A stretch of DNA of 64,000 bases, from IMG/VR virus record IMGVR_UViG_3300042940_001100, positions 58,321-122,320 of that record. The stretch is one strand, 5' to 3'. The notes beneath the pieces are model-generated. The model was not told the origin of the DNA. It saw only the letters and a list, made by a program, of their open reading frames with translations, and did not search any database. The DNA is from a virus. Position 1 is the stretch's first letter. Each line of letters opens with the position of its first letter. Shown here in pieces: positions 56,378 to 63,319 of this stretch. Position numbers and translations under genes: made by a program.

Positions 56378-56782
56378 TTAAATGTTTGTTTGTACTGGAT
56401 CTTTAGCTGCATTACAGATTCTTGTTAACTTGTACTTAGCTTTTTCTCTTTTAATCCATCCATCATAAGGTTGAGTCCAGTCTAGATCTGCTTGAAAATA
56501 CCCATTGGCACTAGCATCTATCATTAAGAACTTCACATTACCTTTTTTGTTTTGGAATCTTACTACATACTTGTCACCTACATTGCATTCTACAAAGTAG
56601 TACTTGCGACCTTTTACATGTTCTATAGCAACTAAAGCACCATCTTTCTTCATTTTAAATATGGTATACTTAATATTCTTATCTGCTATAAATGATCCTT
56701 GTACTATAAAGTGATAAGGATCTTTTGCTGTTAATGTAGTCACGCTTAGCATGATCAACATAATTGTTACAATTTTCTTCAT
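56378..56782 (-). CDS. Secreted/periplasmic hypothetical protein
   Basis: MKKIVTIMLIMLSVTTLTA signal-peptide-like N-terminus. Confidence 0.7.
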   Translation of the reverse strand: MKKIVTIMLIMLSVTTLTAKDPYHFIVQGSFIADKNIKYTIFKMKKDGALVAIEHVKGRKYYFVECNVGDKYVVRFQNKKGNVKFLMIDASANGYFQADLDWTQPYDGWIKREKAKYKLTRICNAAKDPVQTNI

Positions 56783-56816
56783 TGTTGTTTCTGTTTTTGA
56801 GTTGATTAATAATTAA

Positions 56817-56927
56817 TTACTTAGCTAATTCAAATACTGTGATTGCTATCACAATACCTAGGAAGCCTACTCCTGCTATGGTATATCTTATGATATCCAT
56901 AGTGTCTGGTTGATTTGTTGTTTTCAT
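56817..56927 (-). CDS. Small membrane protein (36 aa)
   Basis: Manual translation MKTTNQPDTMDIIRYTIAGVGFLGIVIAITVFELAK; preceded by CAACTCAA. Confidence 0.55.
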   Translation of the reverse strand: MKTTNQPDTMDIIRYTIAGVGFLGIVIAITVFELAK

Positions 56928-56961
56928 TTGAGTTGTTTTTTGGGTTAATAATATAAAAGTC

Positions 56962-57301
56962 ACTCAGTAAGAAAGTTGAATAGACCAAGATAAAAGTAAA
57001 ACTAAAGGCAAAGACCTCCCTCTGCGTTCAAAGGCTAAGATAAAATCTAAGTCTTAATTGTATCCTCACAGAGTTATGACCTGGGCCCGTGGGCCATTCA
57101 GGTAACTCTGTTTGTATGAGGTGCTGCCAGTTTTCCCCATAGGGTAACCTGTCAAGCTTTGGTACTTTTTATACTAAAAGCCCTACAAAAAAGGTGATTT
57201 TAAGTTGCAGAAGAAGCGGTTTGTGCACCCTAAGGTGCGTTTAGTTTATATCTATTAAAAGTAGATTTTTATCATAAGTTTTAGTAACCTTCTTACCAAG
57301 T
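56962..57301 (-). ncRNA. Large structured ncRNA (340 nt) with tandem hexamer tracts
   Basis: 16-bp closing helix (57286-57301 with 56962-56977), 10-bp inner long-range helix (57207-57216 with 57016-57025), several hairpins, G-U pairs only on the minus strand, no ORF. Confidence 0.8.
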
Positions 57302-57442
57302 ATAAAGCATAAAGAATCAGGCTTATGCCCTATCTTTTCTGCACCCTTTGAATTTCTGATAGCTGTATGAGGAGTGGCATGATCGTACTCACATGAAGAA
57401 AGCTTGCCTCTGCTCTCACACTATATTTAATTTTATTGTAGT

Positions 57443-57469
57443 GTAGCCCGGATACCATAACCGGGCTAC
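57443..57469 (-). other. GC-rich hairpin just after the 306-aa gene (no U-tract)
   Basis: GTAGCCCGG-N9-CCGGGCTAC, followed on the minus strand by ACUACAAUAAAA, so unlikely to terminate. Confidence 0.6.
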
Positions 57470-57475
57470 GTAGTA

Positions 57476-58396
57476 CTAAGACTCAGGATCTAACTTCTTT
57501 AAGAAGTTGTCAATGGTATCCTGAAATCTAGGGTCAATAGAGATTCTCAAAGCAGCCGTGCTTTGTATCTCTGCTTGACGTGCAGCCTCAAACTCCTCAC
57601 GCTCCACCTTCACAAGCTCTAAATATGTAAGATACACATTCGTGTAATCAAGTCTCAATTTCTCATTGAGCTTGTTTACTTCAGCTTGTCCAAGAGCATT
57701 CTCCTTAGAGATGCGGGCATTCTCTTCAGTTACTAAGTTTTTAACCTTAGCTTTGAAGTAATTTACCCTTTGCTCATGAGTACGGTGTAAGCTGGCCAGC
57801 TTCTCATGATGAGCTAATAGCTCTTCAGGAGTATGGTGAACTTCTACCTTTACAGGTGTGCGTTCTCCATCTCTCACAGTTATCCAGTCTAATGACTTAA
57901 CCTTAGGCAACTCATTGCGTAAAGTGTCAAGAACTGAATCCTTATGAATAAACTGACCTATGTGAGAAGCGTAAGCTTCCTGCTCAAGGAACTCTGCGTA
58001 CTCAGCTTGGCTAAGCTGATCCCATCCCCACTGCTCCTGTACTAGGAGTGTAGGTTTGAATGCATTCATAGTTGGATTCTCTGGAGCATCCGTTGAAGGC
58101 ACAAACTGCCTACTTTTGATCTCTCCTAATAACCCGTCCTTGGCTTTGATGTTAGTCATCAAGAAAGCCTGAGCTGCGTGCAGTTTTGCCTTCTCTTGAA
58201 GAAGAGCTGCTAACTCTTTTGGTACCGGTTTACCTGCTACATGAACATAAGTTTCACCACTTATCTTCAATGTACGGTGAGCATTGTTAATACCTGACAA
58301 TGCTTGTGATATCATATTTGCTCTTTGAAAGCATAGGTTTGATATACTGCTAGCTTGTGATAAGCTTAAACCTGTTGTTGCGAGATTATGTCTCAT
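57476..58396 (-). CDS. Alpha-helical/coiled-coil protein (306 aa) linked to the downstream ncRNA
   Basis: Long ORF with higher GC than its neighbours; GLSLSQASSISNLC and EAYASHIGQFIH motifs; heptad-rich C-half; no catalytic motif recognised. Confidence 0.8.
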   Translation of the reverse strand: MRHNLATTGLSLSQASSISNLCFQRANMISQALSGINNAHRTLKISGETYVHVAGKPVPKELAALLQEKAKLHAAQAFLMTNIKAKDGLLGEIKSRQFVPSTDAPENPTMNAFKPTLLVQEQWGWDQLSQAEYAEFLEQEAYASHIGQFIHKDSVLDTLRNELPKVKSLDWITVRDGERTPVKVEVHHTPEELLAHHEKLASLHRTHEQRVNYFKAKVKNLVTEENARISKENALGQAEVNKLNEKLRLDYTNVYLTYLELVKVEREEFEAARQAEIQSTAALRISIDPRFQDTIDNFLKKLDPES

Positions 58397-58541
58397 AAAT
58401 GTGGGTATGGTTGCTTGCTACCAAAAAGTTTTAAGTTTGAATTGATTGTTGAGTTGATTATACCCTTTAGGTAGAGAAGCTCTAAGCCTCTCCACCACGG
58501 TTGAATGTACCGGTGAGTTCTTACGAATGAAGTATACTCAC

Positions 58542-58616
58542 AAAACCTTATGCATTGCATATAAGCCTAAGCTTATTTCATCCCCTATAGGAATCATCAG
58601 TGCAATTTAAAACTTT
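58542..58616 (-). ncRNA. Type I hammerhead ribozyme
   Basis: Minus strand AUUGCA-CUGAUGA-U-UCCU-AUAG-GGGA-U-GAA-AUAAGC-UUAG-GCUUAU-A-UGCAAU: complete core, stems I-III, cleavage triplet AUA; atypical U-U at 10.1-11.1. Confidence 0.8.
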
Positions 58617-58931
58617 AGTAGTTTAAATGTTTAAAGTTTAACTATTCTACAGTCCCCGTTTGTATATCTGTAGATTTATTGGGTAATAGTTAATGTTATA
58701 ATGCGCTTGCCTACAGGAGGTACCTGTAGACTAGATTGTTGAGGCACGCGTTCTTTCCACCAGGGCCTAGGAGTCTTACCTCCTCTTGAAGTCAATCTTA
58801 AAATGGCCGGCTGATTCTACCGTGATTCCACCTGGATTCTTTTATTATACTCAGTTCAAGGAATAAACCTTTAATCCACTGAGTATTGCTTTATAGTGTA
58901 GCAATAAACACTTGACACCGCTGTCAAAGTC

Positions 58932-59016
58932 ATAATAGTCCATAGTGTTTAGCCCTCAAGCCCCTGGGTTTCCCCTACGACTTCTTCTCAGCATGCACTA
59001 TGGTCTATTATTAAAT
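58932..59016 (-). ncRNA. Scaffold RNA repeat, copy A
   Basis: AUAAUAGACCAUAGUG-CAUGC [36 nt, GGG-GAAA-CCC] GGC-UAAA-CACUAUGGACUAUUAU. Confidence 0.7.
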
Positions 59017-59171
59017 AAGTATGCAAAAAGGATAAAAAGGCGAGACTTCTTATATTACTGCCCAACTGAGGGGACTTACAACTATTTGCAAGATTTTAAA
59101 TAAGTATTGGTAGGTAAACTGTTTATGGTCACTTATTGTTTATCTTCAGTAGGTAATGTTTTAAATGTGTT

Positions 59172-59270
59172 ATAATAGTCCATAGTGTTTAGCCTCACCT
59201 ACGATTCTGGTTAGTAGTTTCCCACAGCAGGTAGGGAGTCATTGGCATGCACTATGGTCTATTATTAAAT
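59172..59270 (-). ncRNA. Scaffold RNA repeat, copy B
   Basis: Arms identical to copy A (23 and 26 nt) around a different 50-nt interior (CCUAC/GUAGG, GUGG-GAAA-CUAC). Confidence 0.7.
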
Positions 59271-59392
59271 GAGTTCGTCCCTCTATAGGTCATATAGAAT
59301 AGGACTTGTATATTCCATAGGTGACTAACCCTACTTCTATATACCATTCGCTTCTTAAATGAGGCCCAGTCTAAGCACATCTGGGAAAGCTT

Positions 59393-60316
59393 TTAATCTT
59401 TTATTCTTTCGAGTTTATAGCCACTTTTGTATCTATTCTTTTTATCTAGTCTAAGATATATAATTTCTTCTCCGCTTCTAAGATATCTTGTAATAGTATC
59501 TGCAGAGAACATCTTACGTAATTCTTTATCCTTGGAGTTTTTGAAGAGTAATACCTCACCTGTTTTACAATTAGTAGCTTTGATCTGACCAAGATTGGTT
59601 CCGCTCTTTAGAGATCGGAACTCTTTCTCAGGAATAATACATTCAGCCTCTGTACATCCCTTCTCTATTCTCTTTACAACAGCATGGTGTTGTACATCAT
59701 AATTCTTAGAGACATATCTAGCAAACTCTTCTACATTAGTAAATCCTTTCCCATCTAGGGTATACTTTATCCTTTCTTTCTCTTGTCTATTGGCTATGAT
59801 TTCATTTCTTAATCTCTGCAAGGTTTTAGGTCCAAATCTTGTTATACCTTGAAGCTTGCCGTATTCCCTTACATAAAAGTCTCCAATGGTGTCACGTTGA
59901 TTCTTTGCATAAGAATCGTGTAATGTACTATTACAATCTTTACAGGTATTAGAAATACCTAGATACTCAGATTTATGCTTAGGAAAATGTGAATGTAAAG
60001 GTTTTGTCTCTTTACATACAGTGCATCTTCTAAAACCTTTCTTAGCTATCTTAAAGGCAAATCTCTGCTTACCTATTTCAATAACTCCTCTATTTTTAAG
60101 TCTACAATCTCTACATTTACAATCTCTTCTCTTGTATTTTTTGTCTTTAAGATAAAACTCTATAATATCTTGCTCTTTAAAACATTGGTTACATATCTTA
60201 GTCTCTTTAGTATATTTCTTCTTTTTAGACTTAATCCTTAGTTTCTTCTGATCAAGAGACATCATAGAAGGCTTTAGATCTTTATTCTTGGGCCATTGTT
60301 CTTGTGTATATATCAT
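59393..60316 (-). CDS. Multi-zinc-ribbon DNA-binding protein related to homing endonucleases
   Basis: Two CxxC...F...CxxC units (CNQC/CRDC, CTVC/CKDC) and a NUMOD1-like C-terminus; no clear HNH active site seen. Confidence 0.6.
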   Translation of the reverse strand: MIYTQEQWPKNKDLKPSMMSLDQKKLRIKSKKKKYTKETKICNQCFKEQDIIEFYLKDKKYKRRDCKCRDCRLKNRGVIEIGKQRFAFKIAKKGFRRCTVCKETKPLHSHFPKHKSEYLGISNTCKDCNSTLHDSYAKNQRDTIGDFYVREYGKLQGITRFGPKTLQRLRNEIIANRQEKERIKYTLDGKGFTNVEEFARYVSKNYDVQHHAVVKRIEKGCTEAECIIPEKEFRSLKSGTNLGQIKATNCKTGEVLLFKNSKDKELRKMFSADTITRYLRSGEEIIYLRLDKKNRYKSGYKLERIKD

Positions 60317-60466
60317 AAGTTTTTAGTATTAAGTTAATAAATGAGTCTACCTCTGAGCACATGGTAGCCAAGCTCTATTTATCTCAAACACTTTCTTATG
60401 TGTCCTTATGTGTCACATACTGACTTGACCAGCTATAGAAAGTGCATTGAGAATACCTGTAATTTG

Positions 60467-60948
60467 TTAAACACATTCTATAAAATCAGGCCATTCTTCT
60501 TCTAACTCATATATAGTAACAGCTTCTAGAGGAAAATCTTCTAATCCTAAGCCTTTATCTATATGGTCAAAAAATGCCGGTTTCATTTGTTTCTTGCAGT
60601 CATCAAGATCTATTCCTGTGAATAGCACTTCTTTAGTGCTCTTGATTCTGATTACATGAGTTGTACTCATAGTGAAGAAGCAACAGATTGTTTATATAAA
60701 TGTGTATTTAACTCTACTTGAAAATTATGTTGAATAGCTTCAAGTACATTTGTAGGTGTTTCATATAGAGTATAAAAGTTTTTAGGACTGATTTCTGGAT
60801 GCTTTAATAACTTACCAAGTCTAGCAATATCACTAATGATACATACTTTCTCTTTGTTTTCATCCGTCATGTCCGGAGCACAAGCTAAAATCTCTTCTAA
60901 CCTGCTTGGTCCTACTGATGTAGGTACATAGTTCATAATTTTTGTCAT
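60467..60948 (-). CDS. Two hypothetical proteins (60467-60670 and 60667-60948)
   Basis: ORF track; the second start is reassigned to the ATG at 60948, which follows CAACTCAG. Confidence 0.6.
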
Positions 60949-61350
60949 CTGAGTTGTTGTTTGAGTTGGATTCACACTTTATAAAGGTAGTAAATATCAC
61001 CTAATTAAAGGATAGATAGAGGAGATTTCTCTCCACTATCATCCGTGCCTACAAGATCTTATAATAGACATAAGCCAGCAACTTACTGGATATTCATCAG
61101 GTTAAGGAAATGATGACAATACCACTCGAGTGTTTTACTATCAGGCGACTACCGTTAGATAGCTGTAGGTCTCTTCAAAGACCTAACACATTCTTTACCA
61201 AATGCATAGAGCTATGATATATGTACTATCAAGGACTAAGCATTGTAATGTAACTATTGTTTTTTGAAAGACTGTTTCATCTTTCCAGGCTATTATATGC
61301 CCTATTACACATAATGTTATCATTGTGTTGAGGTTTTAGGTTGTTAATAA

Positions 61351-61566
61351 TTAGTTAGATTCATAATAGTCATTTGCTACTATACCTGCTACCCACCAAC
61401 CTATAAATAAGTTGTACAATGTGAACCAGAATGTACTACCTATACACTCACCATATGAGTAATGGTTGCCATCACCTTTAATAAACATACAGCCCATAGC
61501 TGATAGTATAAGATATAGCACAAGGTAAGTTGCTATAAATACTGCAATTGATTTTGTTGTTTTCAT
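61351..61566 (-). CDS. Small two-TM membrane protein
   Basis: Two hydrophobic segments; CAACTCAG-ATG start. Confidence 0.65.
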   Translation of the reverse strand: MKTTKSIAVFIATYLVLYLILSAMGCMFIKGDGNHYSYGECIGSTFWFTLYNLFIGWWVAGIVANDYYESN

Positions 61567-61590
61567 CTGAGTTGGATTTTAGATTGTTAA

Positions 61591-61824
61591 TTAAATTACT
61601 AAAGGTTGTTGTCTATCCTTTATTTCTAGTTGTAGAGCTTTGAGTCTGTCTATAGACCAATCATTTGCTTCAAGTAATTGTTCAAGAGTCATATCTATCT
61701 CTTCTAAACAGATCTTGTCTATCTCTTTTAGAATATTAGTTATACCCTTAATCATATTCTCTTCTTTAGCCAATAACAGTTCTAACTGTATATTTGACTG
61801 TGTACTTAAGTCTAGTTTTGTCAT
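61591..61824 (-). CDS. Small coiled-coil hypothetical protein
   Basis: 77-aa ORF; CAACTCAA-ATG start. Confidence 0.6.
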   Translation of the reverse strand: MTKLDLSTQSNIQLELLLAKEENMIKGITNILKEIDKICLEEIDMTLEQLLEANDWSIDRLKALQLEIKDRQQPLVI

Positions 61825-61962
61825 TTGAGTTGGGGTTTTAAGTTGATTAATAAATAAGTTTTAGATTTCCCGAGCAGGGATAGTGCATAACTATGTGCTC
61901 AGGTGAAGGTGATGATTAGTTCATACATTCTTCATGGTCTCTTCCTAGGTAGACCTTTGTAT

Positions 61963-62112
61963 ATAATAGACCAGAGTGTTTAGCCATGGAGCGGTCCCAC
62001 CTTCAGGAATAATAGGATTGGGATTTCCCTCCTTAATGGTACACTTTGTACTTTTAGCCTATTTGCTTATTGGCTTGACCCCTTTGACATGCACTCTGGT
62101 CTACTATTTAAT
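61963..62112 (-). ncRNA. Scaffold RNA repeat, copy C
   Basis: AUAGUAGACCAGAGUG-CAUGUC [about 100 nt] GGC-UAAA-CACUCUGGUCUAUUAU, with a compensatory U-A to G-C change relative to copies A and B. Confidence 0.7.
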
Positions 62113-62937
62113 GTATTAGATACTCTAACAAGTTGCTGGAATCAAACCAGAGCAGCCTTTACCATAACCCACTCTTCTATAGTATAGAAGCTATGAGTTA
62201 AAAATTAGAGTATACTTTATGCGTCCTATCTAACCCTCTATTAGGTTGCGGACAATAATATGTAGCCAAGGTTATTAGATGATATATACTATAGTATCCT
62301 ACAGCCAACAATGAACAAGATCATTGCGTGGAGTATATAACAGTACTCTAATAACCCTTATAGGCCAAGTTCTTAATAATTTCAAAGTGGCGGATTCTTT
62401 CTACTAACCATATATAGTAGTAATAGATATATAGAATATTATAGGGTTAGTATAGGCATAGTAGTATAGATCTTGTAGCCATATTATGACCCGCCAAAAT
62501 TTATAGGGATTTTAGGTGTTATGGGTTAATAAAGAATTGTGTATGAGGTAGTTAGCTCAAAACAAACACCCTTTCTTGTGTAATATTTACACCCACACAC
62601 AACTAATAAAGTATTATCTCCATGTCATCACAGTGTGCTTGTTCTATATATAGGGAGATGATACACCATGCTACCACCATAATGCTAACTAATTGATTAT
62701 CAGTACAAAGTTTCACAGCTCTCACATCTTTGTCTCAATTCTCTATATATAGAGAGAGACAAGAACTCACAGTTCACACACATAATCGACCTGTTGCTAT
62801 TCTACCCCCTTTGTTTAAACAATGTTTGATACTTGTACTATATATAAAGTATACACACAACCTGTACATATTACCAACTACTCTGTGTATACTATATATA
62901 TATATGTATGTATACTATATATATCTGTACCTCTGTG

Positions 62938-62973
62938 AAAAAAAAACTATACAGGTATTACCCTGTATAGTTT
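62938..62973 (-). terminator. Intrinsic terminator
   Basis: AAACUAUACAGG-GUAAUA-CCUGUAUAGUUU followed by a U-tract. Confidence 0.8.
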
Positions 62974-62983
62974 ATGTGAGAAC

Positions 62984-63319
62984 TTAGAAAGCCTTGTTCA
63001 AGTTAGCTTGGCTACTTGCTACGGCTGCATTGCTTGGGCGAGTAGAAGCTATAAGGTTATCATTGTTACCGCCTGCCTTATGAAGCATTTTGAAGGTCTC
63101 GCCTGTCTCTTCATCAGTGATATCAGAGATTACATAGTCAGGACTAATTGCTTTAGTCTGTCTAATCTCTGCTTCAATCTTTGAAGATACTGCACCAATA
63201 GGTGTACCTGCTTCATCAGTAAGGAACAATGAACCTGTCTTTGGGTTGTTAATTACTGATACAAAGATACCTTTGTTACCTAATTGTGCTACTGTTTGGG
63301 TGTTGCTGAAAGTTGCCAT
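62984..63319 (-). CDS. Hypothetical protein (111 aa)
   Basis: Likely start MATFSNTQ at 63319; followed by a terminator. Confidence 0.7.
   Translation of the reverse strand: MATFSNTQTVAQLGNKGIFVSVINNPKTGSLFLTDEAGTPIGAVSSKIEAEIRQTKAISPDYVISDITDEETGETFKMLHKAGGNNDNLIASTRPSNAAVASSQANLNKAF

Follow-up and report, generated by a model that had tools for sequence, protein, structure and literature searches.

The early operon of bacteriophage T7 is punctuated between its genes by RNase III sites, which form a small family of similar hairpins, each with an internal loop. Correia elements (CREE/NEMIS) of Neisseria and the ERIC/REP-type repeats are inverted repeats co-transcribed with their neighbour genes, and the Correia element, according to the accessible part of its description, is bound by RNase III, which either cleaves or protects it (PMC2649163). 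The PeSL of T4-type phages is presented, in the available portion of the source, as a sigma-70-like promoter combined with a terminator stem-loop (PMC2839356). Here we analyse a window of 64,000 nucleotides (nt), the final 64 kilobases (kb) of the 122,320-nt IMG/VR virus record IMGVR_UViG_3300042940_001100 (rated complete and 'linear'), in which three dispersed elements, copies A, B and C, enclose differing interiors with a common stem and internal loop. The element shares with the T7 sites the form of look-alike internal-loop hairpins between phage early genes, with the Correia and ERIC/REP-type repeats that of inverted repeats presumably co-transcribed with neighbour genes, and with the PeSL that of a short conserved early-region motif bounding indels and replacements between related phages. 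It seems closest to this class of repeated intercistronic hairpins, while on our comparison it appears to lack the testable defining features of each. The reading that we favour, and hold tentatively, is a co-transcribed intercistronic module for processing and/or exonuclease blocking whose arms would serve secondarily as recombination joints.

The copies occupy the following positions, with the basal stem termed P1 and its arms given in the RNA sense:

58932..59016, minus strand: copy A (covariance model R1, 93.5 bits); P1 58996-59011 (RNA 5' arm) with 58932-58947 (RNA 3' arm), including an A.A mismatch; receptor-like loop CAUGC 58991-58995 / GCUAAA 58948-58953; GAAA loop 58969-58972
59172..59270, minus strand: copy B (covariance model, 105 bits); P1 59250-59265 with 59172-59187; receptor-like loop 59245-59249 / 59188-59193; GAAA loop 59218-59221
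61963..62112, minus strand: copy C (covariance model, 87.9 bits); P1 62092-62107 with 61963-61978; receptor-like loop 62088-62091 / 61979-61984; branched interior of about 101 nt containing GGGAAAUCC (GAAA 62024-62027)

The module order comprises a near-invariant P1 of 16 positions, a 3x4 internal loop, a short stem P2, a free spacer and a GAAA-capped hairpin. In A and B, P1 consists of 15 pairs and the A.A mismatch, and in C all 16 positions pair, one of them as G.U; compared with A and B, copy C carries U-A to G-C on both sides, A.A to A-U and one A-U to G-U. The internal loop of all three reads GUG-CAU-GY / GC-UAAA-CAC, and the enclosed interiors measure about 36, 50 and 101 nt. The original prediction, made from the letters of the window, had described three elements with this stem, loop, range of interior sizes, GAAA caps and, in C, GGGAAAUCC, along with a compensatory change, a repaired A-A mismatch and an added G-U pair in copy C; each of these is read directly from the sequence. 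That the three form a family is confirmed by direct-repeat families D1 and D3 (arms 58929-58954/58991-59020 in A, 59169-59194/59245-59274 in B and 61960-61985/62087-62116 in C), by exact 11-nt and 12-nt arm cores that occur only at these three sites, both in the window and in the whole record, and by 17 further copies on 16 other phage or metagenome records. When up to two mismatches were allowed in the window, exact cores made up 3 of 16 and 3 of 14 sites, and the remainder, with one or two mismatches, stood at chance level.

As minus-strand RNA, A, B and C fold with z = -5.4, -4.9 and -6.35, and none of 200 shuffles folds as well; the plus strand gives z = -3.9, -3.4 and -3.95. All five wobble cells of the family alignment (one GU, four UG) fall on the minus strand. 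Taken together, the wobbles, the GAAA hairpins, the better folds, the co-oriented open reading frames (ORFs) and a hammerhead-like motif described below identify the minus, gene-sense strand as the relevant RNA strand, as had been proposed. Rfam 15 at the gathering threshold gave no match in the window, Rfam at E up to 10 gave nothing over the elements in 58400-63000, and ARAGORN returned no tRNA or tmRNA gene in the window. The family is uncatalogued, without Rfam match, and a limited literature search found no published description of it.

Beyond the window, membership was established with a covariance model built from five copies (A, B, C and one each on L105 and L119; L numbers denote records other than that of the window) and with pattern scans. 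The family amounts to 20 copies, 18 of them usable and 2 cut by contig ends, on 17 records that are all phage-like: the window record, two other IMG/VR contigs (L105 and L119) and 14 metagenome contigs, with 1-3 copies per phage record. The flanks of L105 and L119 have no protein or DNA similarity to the window outside the element. On the three virus records searched whole, the model recovered only the known copies (3, 1 and 1). The metagenome scan, whose pattern demanded an exact 3' arm, yielded 21 stretches that resolved into 14 real contigs (15 copies, of which contig ends truncate two) and 7 chance matches. In IMG/VR, a 15-mer pattern hit at least 114 stretches, one of which was real by the two-arm check, and a 19-mer pattern hit 5 with 2 real; two-arm cores separated by gaps of 30-60, 61-91 and 92-122 nt gave 23, 11 and 16 stretches with 2, 0 and 0 real, and these two-arm scans, being exact-pattern scans, returned no members with diverged outer arms. 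A pattern scan of 185,579 bacterial and archaeal genomes produced two stretches, neither of them real, and the early region of phage phi14:2 gave no covariance-model match better than E = 1 and no comparable repeat. The copies are not independent: one interior lineage is common to A, L157 and L169, the interior of B recurs in L170, and near-identical genes are found on several family contigs.

Conservation figures come from an alignment of 18 sequences. Eleven of the 16 P1 pairs never vary; two-sided changes affect two pairs, both from copy C, and the wobbles amount to one G.U and one U.G. The position of the A.A mismatch keeps it in 14 of the 18 copies, and is U-A in three and A-U in one. The covariation observed was reached by 23 of 500 column shuffles. 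P1 is conserved as sequence and covariation supports it weakly; the further covariation in homologs that had been anticipated did not materialize, with both two-sided changes tracing to copy C and a U.U mismatch in 5 copies. The constancy of P1, the retention of the A.A mismatch and the presence of a loop-receptor pair together exceed what a simple hairpin would call for and thus imply a sequence-specific reader or an RNA-RNA contact.

The interiors behave differently from the arms. Past P2 they span 34-106 nt and cannot be aligned with one another, except for A with L169 and B with L170; the copy B interior is identical over 55 of 55 nt in L170, where it adjoins a 306-aa (amino acid) protein at 60% identity. 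L160 and L170 have identical arms even though the proteins beside them share 29-60% identity with those of the window. To this extent the proposal of unrelated interiors is upheld, apart from the two alignable pairs; it needs qualification in that nearly all of them have a GAAA-capped hairpin in common, often GGGAAAC. Of the 17 distinct interiors (L170, which repeats B, being left out of the count), 14 have a GAAA loop closed by at least two pairs; 2000 dinucleotide shuffles average 1.47 and never exceed 6, and the complementary strand has 0 of 17. Between copy A and L169, the stem under the GAAA loop shows a two-sided exchange of G-C and A-U.

The internal loop invites comparison with the 11-nt GAAA receptor known from the group I intron P4-P6 domain, RNase P and tectoRNA. 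The 3' loop strand GCUAAA is present in 18 of 18 copies (forced by the search pattern in 13), and the 5' strand CAUG in 16 of 18, L171a having CACG and L165 no such strand. In standard receptor numbering the loop becomes G1 C2 U3 A4 A5 A6 / C7 A8 U9 G10 C11, so that the C2-G10 pair, U3.A8, the A4-A5 platform and U9 are all present in canonical order. In the accessible part of a published receptor study, the first three of these contact GAAA and U9 supports the platform; the study counts these residues as the core, with some change permitted at the two peripheral steps (10.1101/2022.12.15.518780). The element departs from the receptor at two peripheral steps: A.C replaces the G6.U7 wobble in all 16 CAUG copies and in L171a, and at the closing C1-G11 position 14 copies have G-C, three have G.U and one has a mismatch. 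The same partial source puts the cost of other Watson-Crick pairs at 1-11 at 0.5-1.5 kcal/mol and the effect of substitutions at the 6-7 step between almost none and more than 2 kcal/mol; the four-letter variant seen here does not appear in that part of it (10.1101/2022.12.15.518780). With the core letters kept and only the two peripheral steps changed, the loop is receptor-like and may be regarded as a candidate 11-nt GAAA receptor. A stronger argument than the loop letters is the co-occurrence of loop and receptor: closed GAAA loops accompany the receptor-like loop in 14 of 17 interiors, and L165, the sole copy without the CAU strand, is among the three without a closed GAAA. The joint presence of both motifs, as claimed in the original prediction, is thereby sustained.

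Other features set the element apart from established GAAA/receptor systems, which it resembles in the core residues and in holding the GAAA hairpin within the same RNA. Those systems are large ribozymes with loop and receptor one helical turn apart, whereas here the pair is found in an intercistronic hairpin of 90-165 nt and the distance between them varies, the 5'-side values for the 11 simple members being 12, 16, 17, 18, 18, 20, 20, 22, 22, 23 and 23 nt. The suggested self-assembly as a rigid dimer of the tectoRNA type is not favoured, since a spacing of 12-23 nt provides no fixed helical distance.

The location of the copies is informative as to function. No ORF of 45 aa or more spans an element in any of the 20 copies. 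In L157, L162 and L171, the 5' base of P1 is formed by an in-frame TAA-TAA-TAG, at whose first codon the upstream gene ends; the upstream ORF of L158 stops 5 nt short of the stem. Seven contigs have their next ORF begin 13-37 nt past P1. Neighbour ORFs supported by homology lie on the strand of the element in 12 of 13 contigs, with L165 as the exception. Because the stop codon abuts the stem and the next start is 13-37 nt away, a separate promoter or terminator has no room in the tightly packed contigs. On the same strand, about 310 nt downstream of copy A, there is a further RNA motif:

58555..58624, minus strand: hammerhead-like self-cleaving motif, type I (RF03152, 19.4 bits, E 0.4, below threshold)

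A homologue in L157, also on the minus strand and 82 nt after the element, retains the CUGAUGA/GAAA core and stem I, and its stems II and III are different yet complementary. The motif probably represents a genuine site of self-cleavage in the early transcript, and its occurrence on the same strand suggests that the element strand is transcribed and processed. The element resembles the intercistronic hammerheads of phages as RNA punctuation, the two motifs lying 82-310 nt apart on what would be the same transcript; it differs in having no known catalytic core and no Rfam ribozyme match.

The tight intercistronic placement, the co-orientation, the hammerhead-like motif and the missing promoter and terminator signals collectively argue for a cis-acting, co-transcribed module. 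As we envisage it, the elements would be transcribed as part of the early operon that runs leftward (on the minus strand) in a freshwater crAss-like phage and in its relatives and would act in cis on the early message, each as a punctuation mark between cistrons. A long helix would be locked by the contact between loop and receptor; the polycistronic RNA might then be cut at the helix by a double-strand-specific host nuclease, exonucleases might be stopped there, or both. The outcome would be defined, protected ends on each neighbouring message, in the manner of the T7 RNase III sites and of the nearby hammerhead. The form of the element (16 positions, loop and P2) would be compatible with the roughly two-turn helix of an RNase III site. 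It differs from the T7 sites in its near-invariant lower stem, its upper part, free in sequence and length, and its GAAA/receptor pair, and its cleavage is a proposal. A second role, partly shown, would arise from arms that are identical across diverged phages and may thus serve as homologous-recombination joints through which interiors and small neighbour genes are exchanged. The 'processing handle' was one part of the original prediction, and it is the part that we consider most plausible. Consistent with a transcribed early region, the crAss-like phage phi14:2, the one relative that has been studied, has, according to the part of the report available, long early intergenic RNAs that are highly transcribed and of unknown function (10.1101/2020.03.07.982082).

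Several observations weigh against this favoured reading. A plain processing or stability hairpin would need neither 11 invariant pairs of 16, nor a kept A.A mismatch, nor a loop-receptor pair, and the U.U mismatch of 5 copies sits at one outer pair of the very helix on which processing would depend. The tight packing is mainly a property of the relatives, the window copies lying in longer non-coding stretches, 127-876 nt from the nearest upstream ORF. Fifteen of the 20 copies came from the pattern with an exact 3' arm, so that the apparent invariance of that arm is inflated. No match to RNase III was obtained among the phage proteins (a Bacteroides control was positive), and the nuclease proposed is one of the host. 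Transcription, cleavage and protection are all inferred: the stretch is contained in 24 lake-water DNA runs and in no RNA run.

The invariance of P1, which implies a specific reader, and the co-occurrence of loop and receptor, including the loss of both in L165, would also suit a different scenario, in which the elements are excised as stable, trans-acting small RNAs. P1 would then be the handle for a specific protein or nuclease, with the copies (A with B with C, or those on either side of one gene) docking on each other through loop and receptor into an RNA-RNA assembly or with the interiors acting as decoys or guides. The order 5'-(U/C)AUG(G/C)...GAAA...(C/G)CUAA(G/A)-3', which we take to be that of tectoRNA hairpins, and the 1-3 copies per phage record are in keeping with it. 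Early intergenic RNAs of phi14:2 that are still abundant late in infection, as described in the accessible part of the source, may be counted in its favour as well (10.1101/2020.03.07.982082). The scenario is difficult to reconcile with the variable receptor-to-loop distance. Complementarity is likewise missing: blastn-short of the 18 interiors against the whole phage returned only matches of 10-19 nt, with a best non-self E of 0.029, so that the idea of a scaffold presenting decoy or guide payloads receives no backing from matches above chance. Independent small-RNA genes, another possibility raised earlier, would have no room for a promoter or terminator of their own where copies are wedged between ORFs and the stop abuts the stem. 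Nor was a conserved partner protein found. One candidate is a phrog_15656-like ORF of about 215 aa that lies next to copies in 7 contigs, with a copy on either side of it in L171:

L105:5200-5847, minus strand: phrog_15656-like ORF
L157:304-990, minus strand: phrog_15656-like ORF
L158:3756-4337, minus strand: phrog_15656-like ORF
L162:3-659, plus strand: phrog_15656-like ORF
L163:1-207, plus strand: phrog_15656-like ORF
L169:3-581, minus strand: phrog_15656-like ORF
L171:5618-6262, minus strand: phrog_15656-like ORF

The match to phrog_15656 has E 1e-14 to 3e-16 in all five ORFs tested and the protein belongs to no Pfam family; a blastp search found no homologue of it in the record of the window. 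On balance, trans-acting small RNAs appear possible but unlikely. Also to be considered is a docking of the modules on each other (A, B and C, or the L171 pair that brackets a gene), within one early transcript or between several, through the GAAA loop and variant 11-nt receptor of each. This would loop out or bundle cistrons in a defined RNA-RNA assembly and so control their stability or translation, with the hypervariable spacers tuning the pairing, and would make the family a counterpart in nature to designed tectoRNA; we regard it as quite improbable.

Strain variation bears on the favoured module and its recombination joints and, equally, on a reading at the level of DNA. Joints between strains were read from DNA contigs of four lake runs. 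The joint 61962>62255, which is well supported (X24, side 146) and has 6 nt of microhomology, removes copy C together with 142 nt more. The joints 58929>59164, 59022>59355 and 59376>60475 are weak (sides of 22-34 letters, 80% likeness), and the last takes out an HNH endonuclease gene. Interior B is found within A-type flanks in L170, and interior A is joined to a B-type 3' flank in L169. Single-letter variants inside the elements numbered zero in the four runs, which is not significant given 10 variant sites in 3.8 kb. The stretches affected are as follows:

59393..60316, minus strand: HNH / endonuclease VII-like gene, 307 aa (phrog_1035 1e-8, phrog_2255 1.7e-4), between copies C and B
62113..62254, minus strand: 142-nt non-coding stretch, 5' of copy C in the RNA sense, lost with C in some strains

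The HNH gene lies 120 nt from copy B, and contigs of three lake samples seem to be without it; from its sequence it looks like a free-standing homing endonuclease. Polymorphisms of this kind could mean that the arms are terminal inverted repeats or binding sites on the DNA and that the RNA fold is a by-product; the element might then be mobile in the manner of a MITE, serve a homing endonuclease or recombinase as its target, or mark the boundary of a cassette much as attC does. Arms that are conserved as sequence with little covariation and stand as islands of identity amid diverged flanks fit such a function, as do indels and replacements that start at the arms, an endonuclease gene of variable presence nearby and the bracketing of a gene by two copies in L171. 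Other properties contradict it. Copy number is low, at 1-3 per record, and the interiors are unrelated, unlike copies of a single transposon; the many copies with homologous interior that mark MITE or Correia repeats are replaced by 3, 1 and 1 copies on the three virus records, with only A and L169, and B and L170, alignable. Correia elements are high-copy with a conserved core, and none of the present family is found in the bacterial genomes scanned. Wobbles and GAAA hairpins are all specific to the gene-sense strand, a compensatory change falls within an interior hairpin (A compared with L169), and the conserved asymmetric CAU/UAAA loop would be unneeded by a symmetric DNA site. No transposase or integrase was seen beside any copy. 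The ends of the element are AT-rich, palindromic inverted repeats in which a TA target-site duplication is unreadable. A DNA-level element is, in our judgement, distinctly unlikely. Retron, integron and CRISPR-repeat interpretations were dropped, as the neighbours scanned include no reverse transcriptase, integrase or Cas protein and the repeats are inverted, not direct; an invertible promoter was likewise dropped, the interiors (36-101 nt) being too short and the wobble pairs strand-specific.

A regulatory cassette of the PeSL type, in which an early-region hairpin would act as promoter and/or terminator and its loop-receptor likeness would be coincidental, has to be weighed where a second conserved block is concerned:

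59355..59376, minus strand: second conserved block; upstream of copy B; matched at 22 of 22 nt by L153, L163 and L169

The block extends over about 65 nt in L153, L161, L163 and L169, is partial in L105, lies 85-390 nt upstream of the elements and can form a 9-base-pair stem; a strain joint falls on it in the window. It reads TTGACA-N18-TTTAAA in four contigs and not in the window, where only the 3' 22 nt are kept. This separate promoter-like block upstream of the elements favours the cassette, and so does the analogy that a repeated motif in a plastic early region flanks small optional genes and marks replacement boundaries, described for the PeSL in the part of the source available (PMC2839356). 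Within the element itself, no promoter or terminator signature was found, and the fold is far more elaborate than that of the PeSL. Three terminator-like sites were found, none of them on an element, and no U-tract follows P1. The scan for consensus promoters, which does not cover promoters of the Bacteroidota type, returned 19 promoter-like sites, a number at shuffle level (18.0 expected). Early promoters of phi14:2 are without a common motif, as far as the accessible text of that study goes (10.1101/2020.03.07.982082). Finally, 14 closed GAAA loops in 17 interiors, with 1.5 expected, are hardly a coincidence. We consider the cassette, which would account only for the shuffling, very improbable.

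Hairpins repeated between the genes of phages are nothing rare, but the present element is unusual in uniting three properties: a stem conserved like a protein-binding site together with a ribozyme-type loop-receptor pair, a free-form spacer, and letter-perfect preservation across diverged phages. If it is a processing or protection signal, as favoured here, it would offer a handle on how phages shape early messages without terminators of the host type. Should loop and receptor dock between copies, programmed RNA-RNA assembly would have one of its rare natural examples. In both cases the elements, of about 100 nt, make up a testable RNA family that Rfam lacks.

The genomic setting was inspected on the full record. 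Plus-strand genes occupy 3-83 kb and minus-strand genes 83-122 kb, and both turning points of the cumulative GC skew coincide with the switches of gene strand; the gene layout and the skew place the elements 2-5 kb into the leftward arm, beside the point from which the arms run apart. Giant ORFs form a block in the record, and the ORF of 4307 aa contains one DFDVD motif, and DFDxD is given as the motif of the crAss-like phage virion RNA polymerase in the accessible part of the source (10.1101/2020.03.07.982082). From the layout, this one motif and the two divergent gene arms, we infer that the phage is crAss-like. Neither megablast nor blastn matched 58600-62600 to any of 50,697 phage records, and tblastn with the first 2000 aa of the giant ORF likewise gave no match; tblastn with the polymerase fragment reached only distant matches to mixed phages, which provide no taxonomic placement, and a PHROGs search of the giant ORFs returned a DprA-like stretch only.

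The early, largely non-coding end of the genome seems unusually rich in structured RNA. Long non-coding stretches at 56780-57480 and 58600-58925 (minus strand) show many local hairpins and exceed the window in G+C, which is 0.38 for 58600-59392, compared with 0.33 for the window. The 142-nt stretch next to copy C (62113-62254) contains a T-arm-like hairpin, CUGG-UUUGAUU-CCAG, and an 8-base-pair palindrome, with no tRNA called by ARAGORN. Several small minus-strand genes have in common a repeated leader of about 30 nt before their start codons, represented by direct-repeat families D2, D5, D7 and D8:

56796-56951, minus-strand genes: repeated leader of about 30 nt
60940-60972, minus-strand genes: repeated leader of about 30 nt
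61334-61357, minus-strand genes: repeated leader of about 30 nt
61553-61593, minus-strand genes: repeated leader of about 30 nt
61816-61860, minus-strand genes: repeated leader of about 30 nt

This leader may be a shared translation-initiation or promoter region.

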